DNA from: Candidatus Nanoarchaeia archaeon
GTDB lineage: Archaea > Nanobdellota > Nanobdellia > WJKC01
Assembly (NCBI GenBank): GCA_041653515.1
Contig: JBAZFG010000001.1
Location: 74,332-138,331, forward strand
Length of the DNA: 64,000 bases
Direction: 5' to 3'
The position numbers and the translations under genes are program-made. Shown one piece after another: positions 1 through 37,369 of this stretch. Position 1 is the stretch's first letter, and each line of letters opens with the position of its first letter. Under the pieces are notes generated by a model, which saw nothing but the letters and a program-made list of their open reading frames with translations, was not told the origin of the DNA and made no database searches.

Positions 1-756
1 AAAGCAGTTTTAGAAGATGTTAGTTTGTTGAGGGATTCACTTGATACTGTTAGTAACTTCATTAATGAAGGAACGTTTACTTTGAGTAATAATGGCTTGT
101 CATTAGTGGCGATGGACCCTGCTAACGTGGCAATGGTCTTATATGACTTATTGGCAAGTGCTTTTGTTGAGTATGAATGCACGGCTGAGTCAAAATTAAC
201 AATTAATATTCCTTATTTAGTTTCAATCCTTAAGCGCTCAGGCGCTGGCGACCGAGTTGAGTTAAAATTACTTGATGGTAGTAACTCCATGACTATTAAG
301 ATGGTTGGCGATTCAACCCGTACTTTCACTTTGCCGTTGCTGGAAGCTCATGGCAGCGCGGTTAACCCACCAGCTAAATTAAGTGATGGCTTCAAGTCAG
401 AAGTTGAGGTAGAAGCGTCAGTCTTGCGTGAAGGCGCTAAGGATGCGTTAATGGTTAGTGACTGTGTTTTATTATCAAGCACTAATGACTCGTTTGTGAT
501 GAAAGCCTTGAGTGATACTAATGAAGTTAACTTACAGCTCGGCAAGGACTCGCCTAGCCTGTTAAGGCTTGAGTCAAAAGAGCCTGTGAAGAGCAAGTAC
601 TCATTGGAGTACATTGATAAGATGATGAAGGTTTCAAAGATTGTTAAGACAGTGACCATTAAATTCGCTAATGAGTACCCATTGCAACTTGATTACGCTG
701 CGATGGATAAACTAAAAGTCTCGTTCATCCTGGCGCCAAGAATAGACACTGAGTAA
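1..756 (+). CDS. pcna: DNA polymerase sliding clamp PCNA, 5'-partial (gene starts before the window)
   Basis: Protein matches archaeal PCNA from its N-terminal region (…KAVLEDVSLLRDSLDTVSNFINEGTF… in frame from position 1). The reading frame is open from base 1 and stops at TAA 756-758. Confidence 0.85.
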   Translation, partial: KAVLEDVSLLRDSLDTVSNFINEGTFTLSNNGLSLVAMDPANVAMVLYDLLASAFVEYECTAESKLTINIPYLVSILKRSGAGDRVELKLLDGSNSMTIKMVGDSTRTFTLPLLEAHGSAVNPPAKLSDGFKSEVEVEASVLREGAKDALMVSDCVLLSSTNDSFVMKALSDTNEVNLQLGKDSPSLLRLESKEPVKSKYSLEYIDKMMKVSKIVKTVTIKFANEYPLQLDYAAMDKLKVSFILAPRIDTE

Positions 757-2322
757 AATTTATAATAAAGTTTATTTTAATATTTTACAATGAATGAAGA
801 ATATTATAATTATTGTTTAAAAAATGAGTGCTTTACTAATACTGAATTTAGTGATTACCTTTATTTTAGAAAGATTCCTGATTATATCAAAAATGGGAAA
901 ATTAGGAATGGTTTAATTAAAATTCATAAGAAGTATATCAAATATGTTAAAAGTGAGAATTTTAGTTTTTTTGAAGAATTTAAAAAGTTTAAGATAAGTA
1001 CATCTGATAAATTAATTAAATTTAATGATTCTTTGTTAAAGTTAACAATTAATAAAGACGAATTAAAGTTTTTACTTGATGTTAAAATCTTTTTAGTTAT
1101 CTGCAAAAAAAGAATGGTTTGGCTTAAAAAAAATTTTGATAGTATATTTAATGATTTTAATGATTTCTTAATTGGTAATAAACTAGCTAAAAAGAAGCTA
1201 AAACCTATTGATTGGGGTTTTTTTAAATCAGTGGATTTTTCAGGCGCTTATGGCATGACTTCTCTTTTTTCAAATAAAACTTATTGGGGTCTTTTTTTAA
1301 TCTGCAGTCTTTTAGGATTAGGTGCTTTTAGTTTTGTTTTGTCTTTATTACAAAATTGGAGAAAAAAGTTTATCAGTATTGCTAATGATTTTGTTAGCAT
1401 TACTGATAATGGTGCTGTAAAAACAGGTGAAGTTAAATTACTTCAAGAAGGGACAATTGAATTAGTCTTGATTCATGAGCTCGCCCATTACTATTCAATA
1501 TCCATTTTAGAGACATTATATCAGACGGTTAAGGGTGGCTTAAAAAGATTTAAGGGTAAAGCAATTGATATCAATTCAGAGCAGGAGGGGCTGGCCGAAG
1601 CCTTTGCAATCAGTTTTGCTAAAGCAAAAGGGATAGATTATACTGAGTACTGGGATTGCTCAACTTTTGATTATAAAAGTTATTTTTTCGAAAGAGTTTT
1701 GAAATATGATTCAATTACTGCTATGAAGAAAGTCTTTAATTATGATGATTACAGAGCTTACTCTAAAGAGGTTGTTATTTACCTTGAGAATTTAAAAGTT
1801 GATAGTGAATATTTTAGTGAGAGAGTATCAAAAGGGGGCATATTGAACGGTTTTAAATTGATTAAATCTGGAAAAATGAAAGATGAAGATACTTTGCGTG
1901 TATTATTTGAGATAAAAGACTTATTTTTACGATTTAATCAATTCTTTAGATCATTGAGTTATTATTTAAGCGAAAACTCATATATTTTAAAAAGATTTTT
2001 ATGTGCTCTTGGGGTTACTAGAAATAAGGATTTTAAGAATTGTGTAGATGAATTACTTGGTTTGACTGAAAATCAATATTCTTTTTTAAAGAACAAGGAT
2101 CATAATACCTTTTTATCTGAAGATAACCAGATTACTTTTTTAAGTAATTTGAATAATTTAGTGCGTAAAGTTAATGAATTAGAAAAAAAGAAGTTAAATA
2201 TTGATGCTGACGTAATTAATATTGTTTTGAATGCTTTAAAAAATATTAAATTGTTATTGAAAGGTTAGTTTTTAAGATGGTAACAATATTTCTCTAGCGC
2301 CAAGAATAGACACTGAGTAAAA
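733..2322 (+). mobile_element. 1.54 kb AT-rich insertion flanked by a perfect 26-bp direct repeat (733-758 and 2297-2322) that duplicates the last 8 codons and stop of PCNA
   Basis: gcgccaagaatagacactgagtaaaa occurs twice and the second copy still encodes LAPRIDTE*. The interior is visibly more AT-rich than the flanks and carries one ORF (790-2268). Confidence 0.6.
790..2268 (+). CDS. hypothetical membrane-anchored protein with HExxH zinc-metallopeptidase-like motif (HELAHYY, downstream EGLAEAF); cargo of the insertion
   Basis: 492 aa ORF, Lys/Asn/Phe/Ile-rich with very low GC. It has one predicted TM helix (YWGLFLICSLLGLGAFSFVLSLL) and an HEXXH motif. Confidence 0.5.
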   Translation: MNEEYYNYCLKNECFTNTEFSDYLYFRKIPDYIKNGKIRNGLIKIHKKYIKYVKSENFSFFEEFKKFKISTSDKLIKFNDSLLKLTINKDELKFLLDVKIFLVICKKRMVWLKKNFDSIFNDFNDFLIGNKLAKKKLKPIDWGFFKSVDFSGAYGMTSLFSNKTYWGLFLICSLLGLGAFSFVLSLLQNWRKKFISIANDFVSITDNGAVKTGEVKLLQEGTIELVLIHELAHYYSISILETLYQTVKGGLKRFKGKAIDINSEQEGLAEAFAISFAKAKGIDYTEYWDCSTFDYKSYFFERVLKYDSITAMKKVFNYDDYRAYSKEVVIYLENLKVDSEYFSERVSKGGILNGFKLIKSGKMKDEDTLRVLFEIKDLFLRFNQFFRSLSYYLSENSYILKRFLCALGVTRNKDFKNCVDELLGLTENQYSFLKNKDHNTFLSEDNQITFLSNLNNLVRKVNELEKKKLNIDADVINIVLNALKNIKLLLKG

Positions 2323-2361
2323 GAAATTCTTATAATGCATTAGTCCTTTAATTAATATTTA

Positions 2362-2853
2362 ATGGGTTTGTTAAAGCAGTTATCATTGAAAAGGAAATTC
2401 AAGAAATTTGATTCTTTAGATTTATATGACTTAGTTCATAAGGGTATTAACCTTAAAGAGTTTGATGGACTTAAAATAGGCCGTCGGACTAACCGATTAG
2501 ATATTTTAGAATGGGTTTATAGGGATGCTGCGCCTGAATTAATTAATCAAGATGAGTTAACAGGCATGCTTAATTATTTTGAATTAAAATCACAAAAATC
2601 GTATGATGATTCACATTTATACTCTGACTTAAAACATGAGTTAACAATATGGAATGGTAGTGCAATCTCTTTGGCTGAGACAATTCACTCGCTTCATAAT
2701 AAAATGGTGCCTGTTGTTGAAGATTATATTATGAATAGAACTGTTAAGCGTTTCAGAGAGTTCTACCAGCAAGGCATTAGGGAGTATGATAATAATAAGT
2801 CATTTGATTTCCCTGACCCTGATTGGTGTTTTGACGGTCCGTGCACTTGCTAA
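2362..2853 (+). CDS. hypothetical protein (163 aa, Cys-rich C-terminus CFDGPCTC)
   Basis: ORF with coding-like composition and no recognisable family. Confidence 0.4.
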   Translation: MGLLKQLSLKRKFKKFDSLDLYDLVHKGINLKEFDGLKIGRRTNRLDILEWVYRDAAPELINQDELTGMLNYFELKSQKSYDDSHLYSDLKHELTIWNGSAISLAETIHSLHNKMVPVVEDYIMNRTVKRFREFYQQGIREYDNNKSFDFPDPDWCFDGPCTC

Positions 2854-2898
2854 GCCTGAATAACTTTTATATTAGGAGAATTAATTAAATCTTTAATC

Positions 2899-4536
2899 AT
2901 GAAAACAATTAAGGGTAATTTAGTTGATGTTGATAAGAATGAGATTTACCCTGTTATCATTAAGTATGATACTAAGGTGCGACAAATTAATCGCTTGAAT
3001 GAGCCTTGTGATAATTTCATCCTGCCCGGCTTGATTGACGCTCACATTCATATTGAGAGCACAATGCTCACGCCGAGCCGTTTTGCTGAAGTAGTTATCC
3101 CACATGGCACTGTGGCAACAGTCTCTGACCCGCATGAGATAGCTAACGTGGCAGGGGTTAAGGGGGTTAAGTTCATGATTCATGACTCGCCAAGAGAAAT
3201 GAAATTAAATTATACAGCACCCAGTTGTGTGCCTGCCACCCAGTTTGAGACTTCAGGTGCAGAACTTGATTCAAAAAAAGTCAAACAATTATTAAAACTA
3301 AAGCAAGTAGTCGCGCTCGGTGAAGTAATGAATTATCCTGGGGTGATTAATCGTGACCCTGAATTAATGCGCAAGATAAGATTTGCTCGTTTAGCTGGTA
3401 AAAGGGTTGATGGTCACGCGCCAATGCTAACTGGCTTAAACCTTGATAAGTATATTAGTGCTGGCATAACAACCGAGCATGAGTCAACCAGTTATAAGGA
3501 AGGGCTTGAGAAATTAAGGAAAGGTATGAAATTAATGATAAGACAGGGGTTCTCTGAGCATAACATGCCTGACTTAATTCAGTTAGCGCGCCAATACCCT
3601 GATGATTGTTTTATTGTCAGTGATGACCGACACGCGCCTGATTTAGTGAGAGGTCATATTGATGAATTATTACGGCAAGCAGTGGCTTTGGGTCTTGACC
3701 CATTAATAGCTGTTAAGTGCTGCACTAAGAACCCGTCAATTCATTACGGGTTGAATACTGGTTTAATAAGGGTTGGCTTATCAGCTGATTTCGTGGTGGT
3801 TAATGACTTATGCCACTTCTATGTTGAGCAAGTAATAATTAATGGCCAATTAGTGGCTGAAAAAGGTGAATGCTTGGTTAAGTTTAAACAACATAATTTT
3901 CCATTAAGAATTAATTATTACCCATTAAGGAGGGATGATTTTGTTATTAAAGCTGATAGTGATTTTGTTAACGCCCGCGTAATAGGTATAATTAGGCGTC
4001 AGATAATAACTAAGGATTTAACAATGCGATTAAAGGTTAAGAATGGTTTGTTAATGCCTGATGAAAGTAAGGGTGTTAGTTATCTGGCTGTTGTTAATCG
4101 TTATAAAAAAACTAGTCCTGCCATGGCTTTAGTTAAGGGCTTATGGGTTGACGGTGCTATTGCGAGCAGTGTTAGCCATGATAGTCATAATATTATTGTT
4201 ACAGGCAATGACCCTGATGACATGCTTAAAGCAGTTAGGTTAGTGATGCGTCACGGCGGCTTAGCTTTTGCCAGCGGCAAGAAATCCTTTGTTGTCCCGC
4301 TTGAAGTAGCTGGGTTAATGACTAATAAACCATTAAATAAATTACTTGATGAATTATCCACTATTAAGAAAATGGTGCGGTCAGCTGATTGCGCGCTTGC
4401 CTCACCGTTCATGCAATTAAGTTTCCTCGCGTTACTAGTTATTCCTGAATTAAAACTAAGTGATAAAGGCTTGTTTGATGCTAAACGTTTTTGTTTAATT
4501 AAGCCCGAACAACGATTTAAAGAAATTAATGATTGA
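2899..4536 (+). CDS. ade: adenine deaminase (amidohydrolase superfamily)
   Basis: LIDAHIHIES…PHGTVATVSDPHEIANV metal-binding motifs typical of adenine deaminase, with a ~545 aa length. Confidence 0.85.
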   Translation: MKTIKGNLVDVDKNEIYPVIIKYDTKVRQINRLNEPCDNFILPGLIDAHIHIESTMLTPSRFAEVVIPHGTVATVSDPHEIANVAGVKGVKFMIHDSPREMKLNYTAPSCVPATQFETSGAELDSKKVKQLLKLKQVVALGEVMNYPGVINRDPELMRKIRFARLAGKRVDGHAPMLTGLNLDKYISAGITTEHESTSYKEGLEKLRKGMKLMIRQGFSEHNMPDLIQLARQYPDDCFIVSDDRHAPDLVRGHIDELLRQAVALGLDPLIAVKCCTKNPSIHYGLNTGLIRVGLSADFVVVNDLCHFYVEQVIINGQLVAEKGECLVKFKQHNFPLRINYYPLRRDDFVIKADSDFVNARVIGIIRRQIITKDLTMRLKVKNGLLMPDESKGVSYLAVVNRYKKTSPAMALVKGLWVDGAIASSVSHDSHNIIVTGNDPDDMLKAVRLVMRHGGLAFASGKKSFVVPLEVAGLMTNKPLNKLLDELSTIKKMVRSADCALASPFMQLSFLALLVIPELKLSDKGLFDAKRFCLIKPEQRFKEIND

Positions 4537-6003
4537 GTCAAGAATTGTTGGTTGTGATAATGCTTCCAGTTCAGCGAACTCATCATACTCAGCTGATAGT
4601 GAGTCACTCGCCCCAACCATTGTCGGCGCTCTTTCAGCATTAAGGCTGGACGCTTGGTCAACACCTTTCAGTAAGTAGTAGTAAACATTGCCTGTAACAC
4701 TCATGTTTAATTCCCAGTCACTGGTTGTGATATAAGGGTTAATAAAATCCCTTAATTTTTCAACAGCTAGCGTCATGTTATTATCATCAAGGGTTACTGA
4801 TGAGTAAACCCTATCATTAGTTATAACAAAATTACTGCCCCAATAATAAGGTCGTAATAATAATTCATCATCACTAATGCTTCTAACACCGGTCTCAGGC
4901 GCGAACACTTGAATGTAGGGCTCTGTTATCGTAACTTGATAATTATCTTTATAATAAAAAGTATTCATTATATCCTTGCTTGAATCAAAATCACTTAATA
5001 GTGCTGTGTTAAAATTAAAGTTATCAATAATCACTTCACCCTGCAATGAGTAATCATCGCTTGTTAGAGTCAGGCTGTAACCAGGGAAGTACTCATTGAG
5101 CACTGAATTAACCCAGTCACTGATTTTTTGCGCATCAAGTTCCTCACCATAAGCGCTGGCAACTATTTTTCCTTTAGCGCCGATAATGCCATAAACATTC
5201 AGGTAAGCCTGGTCATTATAAGCTGAGAAATAAACTCTTGTTTTGTCCTTGTAAATACCATAACAATTAGTGTCAATTTCAGGATAATAATAATCCCTCA
5301 TGCTTAAGTCACAATTAAGGCTTGTTGATAATGAAGCTAAATCATAACTGCCAGTTGAGTAACCAGTGAATAAGTACTTGACTTCATCGCTGAAGTAATT
5401 AACGTAATCAACACTGCTAACAACGAATTCTTTAATCATTGAAGTGCTGGTCTTAATAACAATTGAGCAATAATCATTATTAAAATATTTTTCACCATTA
5501 AGTGTTTCATAATAACTTCTTAATTCATCGCAGTCACCGCTTAATTGAATGTAATACTCATCGTTTGTCCCATTAACAACGTAATCAGCGTATTTTTCTT
5601 TTAATGAATAACCAATCATATTCATTTCTCTGTCGTTAAATAAGACACTATAATCATTAGTGCTTGAAGTGTAGAATGAAGCGCTCACTGACTTACCAGT
5701 AATGCTTGACTCACTTTCCTTGAACAAGAAATTAATGTTAATGCTCTGGTAATCGCCATAAGAGTAACAGTAAGAATTAGTCACGTTGCTAAATGCGTAA
5801 GGGCTCATGTTTAATTCTTCAATTAACGGGCCTTTTATTGATTCAATGAAAACCGGTGAAACATTGCACTCACTCTCAACGCCTCTTGAATCAACTGAGA
5901 TTAATGCAGGGCTTGATGCGGTTGATTCAGCTAAGACAACGCTCATTAACATCAAAATAATTAGCAAGACTGCTTTTCTCATAGTTTTAGTAGTAATCAG
6001 CAC
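4495..6003 (-). CDS. secreted Tyr/Ser/Asn-rich protein with N-terminal signal peptide
   Basis: MRKAVLLIILMLMSVVLAESTASS signal peptide, followed by a 502 aa low-complexity extracellular-like sequence. Convergent 42-nt overlap with ade. Confidence 0.5.
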   Translation of the reverse strand: MLITTKTMRKAVLLIILMLMSVVLAESTASSPALISVDSRGVESECNVSPVFIESIKGPLIEELNMSPYAFSNVTNSYCYSYGDYQSININFLFKESESSITGKSVSASFYTSSTNDYSVLFNDREMNMIGYSLKEKYADYVVNGTNDEYYIQLSGDCDELRSYYETLNGEKYFNNDYCSIVIKTSTSMIKEFVVSSVDYVNYFSDEVKYLFTGYSTGSYDLASLSTSLNCDLSMRDYYYPEIDTNCYGIYKDKTRVYFSAYNDQAYLNVYGIIGAKGKIVASAYGEELDAQKISDWVNSVLNEYFPGYSLTLTSDDYSLQGEVIIDNFNFNTALLSDFDSSKDIMNTFYYKDNYQVTITEPYIQVFAPETGVRSISDDELLLRPYYWGSNFVITNDRVYSSVTLDDNNMTLAVEKLRDFINPYITTSDWELNMSVTGNVYYYLLKGVDQASSLNAERAPTMVGASDSLSAEYDEFAELEALSQPTILDSIINFFKSLFGLN

Positions 6004-6074
6004 TGTTATTTAAATTATACATATACTTTTGTTCATAACAAGCTATTTTAATAACTATTGAGTATAATCTCTTT

Positions 6075-6353
6075 ATGTTATCAAACATACCAATTGACTT
6101 GAAGAAAGTCAGTAGTAACAGCATTGATAAGGAAGTCCTGCGCCTTGGCATGATTGCTGAGCTTGACGCTGTCAGCTTATACGAGCAATTAGCTGCTATG
6201 GCTACTAATAATAAAGTAAAGAAAGTGCTTCTTGACATTGCTAAAGAAGAGAAAACTCATATGGGCGAGTTCCAAACACTATTGTTAGGGCTTGATAAAG
6301 AGCAGGAACAAGAGTTAAAGAACGGCGAGAAAGAAGTTAAAAGCCTAACATAA
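6075..6353 (+). CDS. small ferritin-like/rubrerythrin-type diiron-motif protein (EncFtn-like, 92 aa)
   Basis: AELDAVSLYEQ … AKEEKTHMGEF (E…EExxH) ferritin-like iron-ligand pattern. Confidence 0.5.
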   Translation: MLSNIPIDLKKVSSNSIDKEVLRLGMIAELDAVSLYEQLAAMATNNKVKKVLLDIAKEEKTHMGEFQTLLLGLDKEQEQELKNGEKEVKSLT

Positions 6354-6388
6354 GAGTTTTTAAACCACTGTGGATAATCTTTTTAATT

Positions 6389-7069
6389 ATGAAATTAGGT
6401 ATTTTATTCTCTGGCGGTAAGGATTCAACTCTAGCTTTGCTTAAAGCAAGAAAACAACATGAAATTGCTTGTCTTATTAGCGTTGTGTCAAGAAACCCTG
6501 ATAGTTATATGTTCCACGTCCCAAACATTCATTTAACACAGCTCCAATCAGAAGCGTTAAGCATTCCGTTATTAACACAAGAGACAAAGGGTGTTAAGGA
6601 ATTAGAGTTAGCTGACTTAAGAAAAGCATTCATTAAAGCCAAAACGGATTATGGTATTGAGGGAATTGTAACTGGCGCTATCAGGTCAGTTTATCAGGCG
6701 AGCCGCGTCCAGCGCTTATGTGATGAGCTTGGTTTATGGTGTTTTAATCCTTTATGGCTGATTGACCAGTTAGAGCTGCTTAACGAAACATTGCTTAATG
6801 GTTTTAAAACCATTATTTCAGGCGTGGCTGGTTACCCTTTTACTAAGGATTTTCTTGGCCAAATAATTGATGAAGGAATTATTAGTAAATTAAAGTCTTT
6901 TCAAGAAAAATTCCTTATTAACCCCGCTGGTGAAGGCGGTGAGCTTGAGACAACAGTTCTTGACTGCCCATTATTCAGTAAGCAAATAGAAATATTGGAT
7001 AGTGATACTTCATTTGATAATTACGCTGGTGTTTTTAATGTAAATAAAGCAAGGTTGGTGAGTAAATGA
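6389..7069 (+). CDS. dph6: Dph6-like diphthine-ammonia ligase / MJ0570-family PP-loop ATP pyrophosphatase
   Basis: SGGKDS PP-loop, EGGELET motif, ~226 aa; collinear with the MJ0570 family. Confidence 0.75.
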   Translation: MKLGILFSGGKDSTLALLKARKQHEIACLISVVSRNPDSYMFHVPNIHLTQLQSEALSIPLLTQETKGVKELELADLRKAFIKAKTDYGIEGIVTGAIRSVYQASRVQRLCDELGLWCFNPLWLIDQLELLNETLLNGFKTIISGVAGYPFTKDFLGQIIDEGIISKLKSFQEKFLINPAGEGGELETTVLDCPLFSKQIEILDSDTSFDNYAGVFNVNKARLVSK

Positions 7070-7509
7070 TTTTATTAATTAATACTTGCGCTGATAAGTT
7101 AAGCGAGCACGAATTTGTTAAGCCAATCAAAGCATTAGTTCATGATGAGTGTTTCATTAAGCATTACTCTGAATTAACTAATAATGATTTATTGGTTGCT
7201 GATAAAATAATTATTTGCGGCACAGCGCTAATGGATTTTGATTACCTTAAAGGTGATTGGTCATGGATTAAAGCTTTTAATAAACCAGTGTTGGGCATCT
7301 GCGCCGGCTTCCAAGTGATTGCCCTGGAACTAGGCAAGGAACTAGTTGATAAGAAAATGATTGGGGTCTTTGACCATAATTATTTTGTTACCTCAAAACT
7401 AGTTGAGGGTGGCGTTACTGAATTAAGGCAGGGCTTATTCACTGCTTACGCTTTCCATCCTGAAGTCCTTAACCCTGAGCTTATTTCAGGATTCTGCCGG
7501 TCTCAATAA
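7066..7509 (+). CDS. class I glutamine amidotransferase domain protein (short, 147 aa)
   Basis: GICAGFQ nucleophile-elbow Cys and FHPE His-Glu motif. ATGA 4-nt overlap with the upstream PP-loop gene. Confidence 0.6.
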   Translation: MILLINTCADKLSEHEFVKPIKALVHDECFIKHYSELTNNDLLVADKIIICGTALMDFDYLKGDWSWIKAFNKPVLGICAGFQVIALELGKELVDKKMIGVFDHNYFVTSKLVEGGVTELRQGLFTAYAFHPEVLNPELISGFCRSQ

Positions 7510-16277: not shown

Positions 16278-17204
16278 TTATTTAATATTATACTCAAAAA
16301 GATAATCATTCCAATTACTATCATAACCTAACTCAAAAACTAATCTAGCAGAATTTAAATCCTTAGGGACTTCTTCAAATAAAACATAACCTTCTTGCTT
16401 AGTATTTTGGTACATATTTTTCCATGTATCTAGTGTTCCACCATAAGATTTTTCATATTGATTACCTTCTAAATCAAGAATAGCCATATTAGAAGGTGAA
16501 AAATAATCACTTTCAGAACCTATATTTTTTACAAAAAAATCAACTCTAAAGTATTCTTCAATAGTGAAATATGAACTTGTCTTAAAGAAACCAAAACTTT
16601 TTAATGTTACTTGAAAATTTCCTTTTGAAATAGTTTGATTAAAAATTGTTTTATTACTTTCATATTCTTCTTCGTATATTTGTTCTATCTCTTCATCAGT
16701 AAAAGAAGGAATTGAAACAAAACTATTATTAGCATTAAGATTCTTGCCATTAGAAGCTAAAAAAGTTATTTCAGCTTTACCATAAGTTGAAAATCCTTTT
16801 TCAATATCACTTTTTTGGACTCTCCATTCAAAAGCCTTGCCTATACTTTGTCCAGTTAATACAATCTGATAATCAACGAATTGAGAAGCAGTTACTGAAA
16901 ATGAATCTTCATAAAGCAAATTATTAAGGTTATCAAAAACTTTAAAGTTTAATTGACCATTAGCGGGTATTTTATTACCAGAAGCATCTTGCAACTGAAA
17001 ATAGAATCTTATTAAATCTGTTTCGTCAGCAGATGAAAAATCTATAATAGTAACTGGATTATACCTTGAATTAGTAACTGTTTGAGTAGTAGATTCTTGA
17101 TTATCAGGCAAATTATTAACAACACTATTACCAGTAGTGCCTGTGCAACCAGCAATAACTAACAAACCAAGTAAGCATAAAGAGGCTATGAGCTTATTAT
17201 TCAT
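16278..17204 (-). CDS. secreted lipoprotein-like protein (308 aa)
   Basis: Signal peptide with lipobox-like LVIAGC. Confidence 0.5.
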   Translation of the reverse strand: MNNKLIASLCLLGLLVIAGCTGTTGNSVVNNLPDNQESTTQTVTNSRYNPVTIIDFSSADETDLIRFYFQLQDASGNKIPANGQLNFKVFDNLNNLLYEDSFSVTASQFVDYQIVLTGQSIGKAFEWRVQKSDIEKGFSTYGKAEITFLASNGKNLNANNSFVSIPSFTDEEIEQIYEEEYESNKTIFNQTISKGNFQVTLKSFGFFKTSSYFTIEEYFRVDFFVKNIGSESDYFSPSNMAILDLEGNQYEKSYGGTLDTWKNMYQNTKQEGYVLFEEVPKDLNSARLVFELGYDSNWNDYLFEYNIK

Positions 17205-17363
17205 AAATAAGATATTAAATCATTATCTTTATTAAGCTTTTGTAAACTAAAAATTAATCATTCTATGGGTTTTATTTCTCAAATTAAGGTCTTGGTAATT
17301 CTTAGCTGGTAAATATTAGTCAGTTAAGAATAGCTGATAGTTTAATTATTGATTTTAAGATAT

Positions 17364-17765
17364 TTAAGTTATTTTCTTAAATTCCTCAATCCTTTTTGAA
17401 TGTTCAATTTCCCAGTCTTTATCAGACTCATTAGGCTTATAGCATTCTATAAATTCAATATTATTACTTATTGTTCTTAATAATTCTCTTGCTTTTTTTG
17501 TTGGGTGCGAAGCACATATGATTACATCACATCCTTTTTCTTTTAATGGAATTAAATATTTCTTTAGCCAAGCAGGAGCGTCTCCAACGCTACAAATCCC
17601 TATTATTTTTCCATTATGGATAAAACTTAAACAAAAATCTTTTCTTATTTTTGGTCTCAAAACACAAATACTTGATTTAAAATATTCTTCCAGAATTTTT
17701 TTTATTGTCGTGCTTTTACCAATTTTTGCTTTACCTTCAAAACAGATTATTTTAGGGTTATCCAT
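17364..17765 (-). CDS. mini P-loop NTPase / NMP-kinase-like protein (133 aa)
   Basis: Walker A GKAKIGKST right after the start MDNPKIICFEG. The ORF-track N-terminal extension (MLLNLVLI x3) is read-through of the tandem repeat and is rejected. Confidence 0.5.
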   Translation of the reverse strand: MDNPKIICFEGKAKIGKSTTIKKILEEYFKSSICVLRPKIRKDFCLSFIHNGKIIGICSVGDAPAWLKKYLIPLKEKGCDVIICASHPTKKARELLRTISNNIEFIECYKPNESDKDWEIEHSKRIEEFKKIT

Positions 17766-17790
17766 AAATAAATCAATAAAATCACTTTTT

Positions 17791-17886
17791 AAAAGCATTA
17801 TTAATACTAAATTTAAAAGCATTATTAATACTAAATTTAAAAGCATTATTAATACTAAATTTAAAAGCATTATTAATACTAAAAAA
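17791..17886. repeat. 24-bp tandem repeat, ~3.75 copies (aaaagcattattaatactaaattt), immediately upstream of the P-loop gene
   Basis: Perfect head-to-tail copies at 17791, 17815 and 17839, with a partial copy at 17863. Confidence 0.9.
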
Positions 17887-17937
17887 ACATTTCTTTTATA
17901 CTTCGTATGATGTTACTATAATAAATAGCTCCAAAAG

Positions 17938-18474
17938 TCACTTTAAAAGAATATTCATTAATTCACTTAAAGTCTTAAATCCATATTCTACTGCAAATTT
18001 ATCTCTTTTTACCTCAGGGTCTTTTGCTCCATGAAAAAGATTATTTCTAATAGCATACCAGAATTCAACCATGTTTTCCCAATCATCAATAGACCGTATA
18101 ACACCTTTTCTTTTTACAGCTTCTTGAGGTGTTTGCTGATTTAACTCATCATGAGAACAATTCCACCATTTAATCTCTTGAGTATTATCTAAATCTCTTG
18201 AAGCGTCACCTAAAGGAATTTTATTTAACTCTTCAATTATTGTTTCCCAATTATTTTTTAATTTTTCATTAGATTTAATCTCTTCAAAATAATCATTTTT
18301 TATATTAACATCTTGTTTAAGCTTCTGAATAGCTTGTCTATCCTGTTTGGCATCATGATACAGTTGTGTCTTTAAATGAGCAATAAAAGCGAGATATTCA
18401 AAAACAAATTTAGAAAAATAATCCTCTTCTGTTGCTTTAATATGCCAAGCATTAATTAATCTTTTATAATTCAT
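17938..18474 (-). CDS. hypothetical protein with C-terminal HEPN-like Rx4H motif (AIRNNLFHG), candidate RNase
   Basis: 178 aa, alpha-helical, with an RNxxxH motif near the C-terminus as in HepT/Abi-type HEPN domains. Motif-level evidence only. Confidence 0.35.
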   Translation of the reverse strand: MNYKRLINAWHIKATEEDYFSKFVFEYLAFIAHLKTQLYHDAKQDRQAIQKLKQDVNIKNDYFEEIKSNEKLKNNWETIIEELNKIPLGDASRDLDNTQEIKWWNCSHDELNQQTPQEAVKRKGVIRSIDDWENMVEFWYAIRNNLFHGAKDPEVKRDKFAVEYGFKTLSELMNILLK

Positions 18475-33893: not shown

Positions 33894-34586
33894 ATGGATT
33901 TAATTGAATTATTGAAGGATAAGAAGGCTATCTTGTTTGATTGGGATGGAGTCTTGTTTAATTCATTGCCTGCTCATTTGAAGCACGCTAAGCATTGCTG
34001 TGAGGCGCGCGGCATTATTAATCACCCTGTTTTTGAGTCAATGAAGGCTTATCGTGAGTTCCTGAGTGATTGCCCGGGCCATTTCTCTGAGATTTATAAA
34101 AAACTAGGCATTGATTACATGCTTAATCATGAGCAAATAACTAATGATTTCATTAAGTTCATGAATGATTCTTCTCTTGAATTATTTGACGGCGCTTATG
34201 AATTGCTTTGTGATTTAAAAGAGCATTACTTGGTTGGCTTGGTTACTTCATCATTCCGCGAGAGTGTTATCCCGCGTTTGCCTTATGGTTTTAATTTTCA
34301 TAGTGAAGTTTTTGCTGGCGAGGCAGCGTCAAAACCAGCGCCTAACGGCATCATTAAGTGCTTGGCTGAGCTTGACGTTAAACCTGAGGAAGCGGTTTAC
34401 GTTGGTGACATGATTAGTGATGCCCAAGCAGCTAGTGCTGCAGGGGTTAGTTTCATTGGTGTGACGTATGGTTATAATAATCATCAAGCACTGGCAGCCC
34501 AACCGCACTTATTAATTGTTGACAGTGTCGAAACGCTTAAAAAGACCCTGCTTACTTATAGTAGATTGTCAGCGACCATAACTTAA
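33894..34586 (+). CDS. HAD-superfamily hydrolase
   Basis: Motif I LFDWDGVLFNS and motif IV GDMISD. The 3' end overlaps the 5S rRNA. Confidence 0.75.
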   Translation: MDLIELLKDKKAILFDWDGVLFNSLPAHLKHAKHCCEARGIINHPVFESMKAYREFLSDCPGHFSEIYKKLGIDYMLNHEQITNDFIKFMNDSSLELFDGAYELLCDLKEHYLVGLVTSSFRESVIPRLPYGFNFHSEVFAGEAASKPAPNGIIKCLAELDVKPEEAVYVGDMISDAQAASAAGVSFIGVTYGYNNHQALAAQPHLLIVDSVETLKKTLLTYSRLSATIT

Positions 34587-34682
34587 GGGGTACCACCCGT
34601 TCTCATCCCGAACACGGAAGTTAAGCCTTTAAGTGTTATAACCTGTACTGTGTAATACATGGGAACGTTATAAGTTGCCGAC
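34568..34682 (+). rRNA. 5S ribosomal RNA (stand-alone)
   Basis: CCACCCGTTCTCATCCCGAACACGGAAGTTAAGC matches the universal 5S helix II/III-loop C region. Terminal helix GTCAGCGAC/GTTGCCGAC; ~115 nt. Confidence 0.8.
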
Positions 34683-34751
34683 ATCTATTTTTTTTTAAAT
34701 TACACTAGTGCTAACTAAGAACTTTTATAAAATAGTACATTTTACTATAGA

Positions 34752-37057: not shown

Positions 37058-37297
37058 ATGAATGTTGGTTTTAAAATCGCTGGCGTTATCTGTTTAGTCC
37101 TAGGTGTTATTGGCGCCTTAGGTGTTTTAGGAACAACTAACCCATTGAGCATTATTAGTGACCCATTATTTAACCTAACTAAATTATTCCTCACTGACAG
37201 CGGCTCATTCTTCCTATGGGTCTTTATCATCGTGCTTGGCTTAACGCTCGTTGGCCCAAGTAAAGGTTTTATTAAAGGCATGGCTACGCGAAAGTAA
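37058..37297 (+). CDS. small membrane protein (79 aa)
   Basis: 2 TM helices. The stop codon lies inside DR1 of the downstream element. Confidence 0.4.
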   Translation: MNVGFKIAGVICLVLGVIGALGVLGTTNPLSIISDPLFNLTKLFLTDSGSFFLWVFIIVLGLTLVGPSKGFIKGMATRK

Positions 37298-37369
37298 GCT
37301 TTATTAAAACAAAGGGGCTGTGCCCCTCTTGACTCCCCCTTTCTTTGAAAGTAAGCTTTATTAAAACAA
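37290..37369 (+). repeat. perfect 23-bp direct repeat (37290-37312 / 37347-37369) flanking a 34-bp GC-rich hairpin insert containing cttgactccccct
   Basis: gaaagtaagctttattaaaacaa occurs twice and includes the stop codon of the upstream gene. The insert has an AGGGGC-tgt-GCCCCT hairpin. Confidence 0.75.

Follow-up and report, generated by a model that had tools for sequence, protein, structure and literature searches.

We report here that the PCNA gene of a DPANN archaeon is followed directly by a short, AT-rich segment carrying one orphan gene and bounded on both sides by a copy of the extreme 3' end of PCNA. The gene lies at the start of a 64,000-nt stretch of DNA (hereafter the window) from a 232,779-bp contig of a metagenome-assembled genome (MAG) labelled Candidatus Nanoarchaeia archaeon, and the inserted segment (759-2296, + strand) is 1,538 bp long with ORF492 as its only open reading frame. 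The data support the view that this is foreign DNA which was recently inserted and which left PCNA intact. The explanation we favour, with a probability of roughly 0.55, is a recent recombination across a 26-bp core by a recombinase that was either lost by deletion or supplied in trans, the DNA being now a fixed remnant.

The repeat bounding the segment is an exact direct repeat of 26 nt, GCGCCAAGAATAGACACTGAGTAAAA, found at 733-758 and 2297-2322 with both copies on the + strand, as the original prediction had claimed. It occurs just twice in the window even when three mismatches are permitted, no match was seen in any of 100 dinucleotide-preserving shuffles, and it is the sole long dispersed exact repeat within the 64 kb. 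Among 400 random pairs of 220-nt flanks taken from the window the longest shared word was on average 8.3 nt and at most 14 nt, hence a chance origin of a 26-nt word is far out of reach. Copy 1, the putative attL core, consists of the last seven PCNA codons (A-P-R-I-D-T-E), the TAA stop at 754-756 and a further AA. Copy 2, the putative attR core, is non-coding and yet identical, which points to a recent event. With one mismatch allowed the repeat grows to 29 nt (730-758 beginning with CTG against 2294-2322 beginning with CTA, 28 of 29 positions identical). The exact repeat had been described as eight codons plus stop, but this number is correct for the 29-nt version with its Leu codon, and the 26-mer covers seven.

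The similarity between the two copies breaks off sharply at both ends, and upstream of copy 2 it is extended by nothing but the CTA (versus CTG). Sharp ends of this kind fit a crossover core rather than decayed homology. The regions downstream of the copies are no more alike than unrelated promoters, since 8 of 47 such comparisons reached the same score or a higher one, and we rejected a duplication reaching into the promoter regions on this basis. The CTA preceding copy 2 is the Leu codon at the matching position in three related PCNA genes, and the C-terminal peptide LAPRIDTE is kept in the relatives but encoded there by other codons. No older, decayed third copy of the core was found between 2323 and 9000, where the best alignment score stayed below the shuffle mean.

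The composition of the insert agrees with the AT-richness first reported for it: its GC content is 25.7%, that of the window is 36.4%, and no more than 0.3% of windows of the same size are as poor in GC. There is no spare DNA in it: 33 nt separate the PCNA stop from the ATG of ORF492 (790-2268, + strand), and 28 nt separate the ORF492 stop from copy 2. A TATA-like box, TTTATAAT (759-766, + strand), can be read from the sequence 24 nt upstream of the ATG, and judging from the known layout of archaeal promoters it may be the insert's own putative promoter, giving a near-leaderless mRNA. Neither repeat copy is crossed by the ORF of a split integrase. As a separate observation, PCNA (25-756) and ORF492 share the same frame, with just the TAA at 754-756 and another TAA at 778-780 between them; this is probably a coincidence, with a chance of 1 in 3.

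A TATA-like box in fact follows each of the two repeat copies, about 24-26 nt ahead of the next ATG, and copy 2 might accordingly be seen as a functional regulatory or terminator element lying directly upstream of such a box, and not as a scar. We find this hardly credible. Neither copy forms a stable RNA structure (folding z-scores of -0.11 and +2.26 relative to shuffled sequence), Rfam gave no match at either of them, and the repeat is mostly plain PCNA coding sequence. Further, 93 PCNA loci besides this one, taken from DPANN and other archaea, were each searched for a repeat, at least 14 nt long and within about 10 kb, of its own PCNA 3' end. Such a duplicate was found in 0 of the 93, the eight close relatives described below being rechecked at 12 nt. 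The scenario named at the outset as speaking against integration, namely that other lineages have a conserved duplicate behind PCNA, was thus tested and no instance of it was found in these loci.

As the genome is known from the metagenomic assembly of one sample, we also considered an artefact in which a small AT-rich molecule had been threaded into the chromosome via a shared k-mer. This is very improbable. The MAG contig and an independent Logan contig (SRR18595300) are identical over 8,251 nt, both junctions included. The Logan assembly uses k = 31 and the names of related MEGAHIT contigs show k141; the 26-nt repeat is shorter than either, and would therefore by itself be unable to join paths of the assembly graph. 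Exact look-ups of ORF492, of its right-hand neighbour ORF163 and of PCNA returned one sample and one contig only, placing the species in a single sample.

PCNA itself (1-756, + strand) is native and its frame is intact, with Pfam matches to PCNA_N (4.5e-14) and PCNA_C (8.6e-11). The gene begins 48 nt before the window and in full (L001 6516-7319) is called as 267 aa, versus 253 aa in most relatives; this 14-aa N-terminal extension is probably a matter of the start-codon call and not a real difference. The closest PCNA proteins are 75-79% identical, none being nearer than 79%. The surroundings are ordinary too, as the 61 window ORFs scanned with Pfam are usual archaeal chromosomal genes or have no match, and genes for RNR, tRNA synthetases, exosome, proteasome, RNase P, S2, TGT and Dus are among the genes of the window.

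Comparison with eight related genomes shows that the block upstream is kept in all of them, running from Cpn60, fibrillarin, Nop and RpoL via further genes to TFIIS, an OB-fold gene and PCNA. What follows PCNA directly, on the other hand, is a different gene in the window genome and in each of the eight: ORF492 in the window, a glycosyltransferase in L002, a 618-aa gene on the - strand in L082, a CoA-binding and redox cluster in L083, a 252-aa gene on the - strand in L084, Dph in L085/L086, Ogg in L090, a radical-SAM gene in L091 and a 315-aa gene in L092. The backbone picks up again at Dph, GATase, the rubrerythrin-like gene, Ogg, the Na/Ca exchanger and Dus, and continues on to RNR; in L085 (Dph) and L090 (Ogg) PCNA abuts backbone genes directly. 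With the upstream order kept and the downstream gene always different, the 3' end of PCNA marks the boundary between a conserved block and a region of rapid gene turnover, and its 3' flank is a lineage-wide hot spot of such turnover. The insertion thus sits in a pre-existing turnover zone, a point which the original prediction had missed, and ORF492 is the newest arrival in it. The gene is missing from the eight related genomes and from the 93 other PCNA loci. A strict empty site, in which PCNA would adjoin ORF163, is not to be expected in current data, the nearest PCNA being 79% identical, the species coming from a single sample and ORF163 being an orphan.

ORF492 is 492 aa long and the second most AT-rich of the 69 window ORFs, and an open frame of 492 codons in DNA of 26% GC is very unlikely to be non-coding. 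A word-indexed search of 5.8 billion proteins with ORF492 retrieved itself only. An exhaustive HMMER search of 1.84 billion representatives gave one relative, the 127-aa metagenomic protein P0122 (E = 1.7e-8), which aligns to residues 13-104 (nt 826-1101) and has the motifs YLRKIPD and GL..IHKK in common with them. P0122 is encoded on a 575-bp contig (L089 167-550) where the upstream gene is not PCNA. With a stand-alone 127-aa protein like its N-terminal domain as the sole relative, ORF492 is a protein of several domains, founded on one that is very rare. A two-sequence profile of ORF492 and P0122 retrieved nothing further from metagenome and viral contigs. Nothing significant was found for ORF492 in Pfam, NCBIfam, PHROGs, PADLOC (a defence-system library) or PDB, and the window holds no paralog of it. 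The mobilome searches suggested earlier for this protein were run, and the phage, plasmid and IMG/VR collections gave no match. An encapsulin match was rejected at 19.8 bits versus a cut-off of 90, and a single-sequence AlphaFold model was unusable (pLDDT 38.8).

At the level of motifs the earlier description of a membrane-anchored HExxH protein holds, with a sole strongly hydrophobic helix at residues about 164-189 (nt 1279-1356) and HELAH at residues 229-233 (nt 1474-1488), followed by EGLAEAF at residues 266-272 (nt 1585-1605), all on the + strand. The HExxH segment matched zincin families below threshold only (SprT-like, E=0.09; M48, E=0.25). From these motifs we suggest that ORF492 is a single-pass membrane protein with a zincin-like HExxH...E motif, and its role as a metalloprotease is a prediction.

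In the course of events we propose, a circular or otherwise mobile piece of foreign, AT-rich DNA would have recombined with the chromosome over the 26 bp that form the extreme 3' end of PCNA. The crossover would leave one copy of the core per side, like attL and attR, and with one copy on each side PCNA retains its last seven codons and its stop. The old PCNA end would have been displaced 1.56 kb downstream, to where it now stands ahead of ORF163. The recombinase would have been lost along with the rest of a larger element, or would have acted from elsewhere, and the present insert is most likely an immobile remnant, a cargo left in a fast-turnover stretch of the chromosome. The predicted empty site would then read ...TTCATCCTGGCGCCAAGAATAGACACTGAGTAAAAGAAATTCTTATAATGC... 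and the predicted junction of the excised circle ...AACAATATTTCTCTAGCGCCAAGAATAGACACTGAGTAAAATTTATAATAAAG....

As a rule, att-type integration leaves foreign DNA enclosed by a direct repeat of the 3' end of its target gene, which is itself restored. In those parts of a survey of archaeal integrated elements on which we draw, elements are documented that entered protein-coding genes in their 3'-distal part and restored the gene end, protein-coding targets account for 14 of 68 integrated elements in Thaumarchaeota, and crenarchaeal att sites measure 29-69 bp (PMC6563490). The elements described there resemble the PCNA insert in their repeats of the target 3' end including the stop, in the restored gene end and in their orphan cargo. 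They differ from it in being multigene, several kb to tens of kb long and in most cases equipped with a tyrosine integrase, whereas the PCNA insert measures 1.5 kb and holds a single gene but no integrase; PCNA is not listed among the protein-coding targets in the same parts of the survey (PMC6563490).

Several observations weigh against recombination by a dedicated enzyme across the 26-bp core. In agreement with what was first noted for this locus, no integrase or transposase was found in the insert with Pfam, NCBIfam or PHROG, no recombinase is present among the 61 window ORFs scanned with Pfam, and the 6.5 kb preceding the window likewise encode no integrase or transposase. Dyad symmetry is lacking in the core, where the best inverted arm of the 26-mer or 29-mer is 4 nt, compared to 3.2 nt on average in shuffles, with a 95th percentile of 5. 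Tyrosine-recombinase cores are usually dyad-symmetric. PCNA is not a recurrent target, given that the 3' end of PCNA is repeated at none of the 93 other loci. None of the collections searched yielded a donor virus or plasmid, a second insertion or a further copy of the core. The insert holds one intact gene and no pseudogene debris, and random deletion of a larger element would not most simply leave it so tightly packed. Finally, the data fit host recombination over short homologies as well as a dedicated recombinase. A 21-mer of the core had no match in viral or metagenome contigs. Of the site-specific integration originally proposed, a recent insertion of foreign DNA that spared PCNA stands, given an orphan, AT-rich segment that is absent from relatives and bounded by a sharp-ended repeat, but the mechanism does not stand in the same way, with no recombinase, dyad symmetry or donor to carry it.

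Host recombination would need no dedicated enzyme. A circle or fragment that carried 26-29 bp of a PCNA end, acquired for instance by imprecise excision in a sibling strain, would have entered by a single crossover through homologous or short-homology recombination. Some archaea recombine on very short homologies, and the missing recombinase (insert, window ORFs and 6.5 kb upstream), the core without dyad symmetry and the non-recurrence of PCNA as a target all favour such a route. The CTA versus CTG mismatch favours it too, since CTA is the codon of relatives and suggests that the incoming end derived from the PCNA of a related genome. Against it, the similarity ends abruptly and shows no decay, 26 bp is short for efficient recombination of the RadA type, and an unseen earlier event is required to put a PCNA end on mobile DNA. 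We consider this route fairly unlikely.

On another reading, ORF492 and its 26-bp site would be an intact, minimal, recombinase-less DPANN cassette, still active and moved in and out at the 3' end of PCNA by a recombinase encoded elsewhere in the host genome or supplied by a helper such as a virus or plasmid. In favour of this, the insert is a compact unit of promoter, intact ORF and 28 nt with no debris, its two site copies are identical, and it encodes no recombinase itself. Integron gene cassettes, Xer-dependent integrative mobile elements (IMEX) and the pdif modules of Acinetobacter are alike in having few genes, no recombinase of their own and short border sites (dif is about 28 bp). We know of no archaeal equivalents of these. 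The attC and dif sites are structured or dyad-symmetric, unlike the PCNA 26-mer, which lacks symmetry of the Xer/dif type. The PCNA insert is moreover seen as a single unit: there is one such unit in the 64 kb, the other AT-rich orphan genes of the window have no flanking repeats, no paralog of ORF492 occurs in the window, the site did not turn up elsewhere (viral and metagenome contigs), and no gene of the window encodes a recombinase. We therefore hold an active cassette to be improbable. If it were true, it would be an archaeal counterpart of integron cassettes and pdif modules, and the PCNA flank would serve accessory genes as a dedicated landing pad.

A direct repeat that borders the insert exactly and with sharp ends is also what a target-site duplication would give; in this, a transposase-like enzyme cuts the two strands 26 nt apart and the staggered ends are filled in, in the manner of casposons or insertion sequences. 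Casposon duplications are 14-15 bp and those of insertion sequences typically 2-15 bp, and 26 bp is much longer. As originally noted, there are no terminal inverted repeats. The sole inverted pair near the ends of the insert is 72% complementary, AT-rich and located 18 and 46 nt inside the termini. Nor did Pfam, NCBIfam and PHROGs reveal a Cas1, transposase or polymerase gene in the insert. The part of the integrated-element survey dealing with casposons gives a further point in favour, namely that these insert at the 3' end of the protein-coding gene ef-2 (PMC6563490). The likeness to casposons, which enter other genes besides ef-2 in this way, thus consists of the 3' end of an essential protein-coding gene as target and of a direct duplication at the flanks, whereas the terminal inverted repeats, Cas1, family B polymerase and 14-15 bp duplications of casposons all lack a counterpart in the PCNA insert. 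All in all a target-site duplication seems quite improbable.

Mobile ORFs of fungal mitochondria (e.g. in Allomyces atp6) duplicate the 3' end of their host gene and leave the original end downstream. As with ORF492, there is a single ORF at the end of an essential gene and a displaced end downstream of it. The fungal ORFs encode homing endonucleases (GIY-YIG or LAGLIDADG) and the gene ends differ, while ORF492 has no nuclease motif and the two copies are identical. No homing-endonuclease domain (LAGLIDADG, GIY-YIG, HNH or PD-(D/E)xK) was detected in ORF492 with Pfam or PHROG at E up to 0.1-1.

Events of this kind are already known; the novelty here lies in PCNA as the target, in DPANN as the host group and in an extreme reduction, down to a single orphan gene. 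The genomes of DPANN archaea are tiny, and gene acquisition in them is very little understood. The locus is a clean and datable case of recent gene gain beside an essential replication gene, with both junctions given at base resolution. Together with further examples it would help to define how foreign genes enter streamlined genomes, and would give searches for integrated elements in DPANN metagenomes a concrete site. As a single case, with neither recombinase nor donor, it is an anecdote and not a new system.

The variable zone as a whole extends from PCNA to Ogg on the - strand (757-7480), and its content and order differ in every related genome. Next to the insert, and outside the repeat-bounded unit, lies the orphan ORF163 (2362-2853, + strand), for which the search of 5.8 billion proteins returned itself only. 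Its region is fairly AT-rich, with 29-35% GC in 200-nt windows, and ORF163 may itself have been inserted here at an earlier time; no repeat flanks it. Then follow an adenine deaminase (2899-4536), ORF502 (4495-6003, - strand), the rubrerythrin-like gene (6075-6353), a diphthamide-synthase-like gene (6389-7069) and GATase (7066-7509). Homologs of ORF502 are found at the equivalent position in two relatives (54% and 45% identity), while ORF163 and the adenine deaminase are missing from every compared locus.

We also looked for flanking repeats at ten other AT-rich ORFs or islands of the window, and none was above chance. A second AT-rich island at 16278-18474 (25-28% GC) contains three ORFs on the - strand with DUF4352 as the sole Pfam match, and is without a flanking direct repeat above chance. 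Within it a perfect 24-nt tandem repeat, TTTAAAAGCATTATTAATACTAAA, is present in four copies at 17788-17883; this array covers the 5' end of the AT-rich ORF 17364-17870 (- strand) and the DNA just before it. At 37290-37369 an exact 23-nt TATA-like direct repeat, GAAAGTAAGCTTTATTAAAACAA, occurs with a spacing of 57 nt between small hydrophobic ORFs, and its copies bracket a GC hairpin, AGGGGCTGTGCCCCT. A duplicated promoter plus terminator is one possible reading of this arrangement, and a small RNA is another. Finally, a 5S rRNA gene at 34568-34683 (72.8 bits) shares about 19 nt with the end of the HAD hydrolase ORF at 33894-34586.

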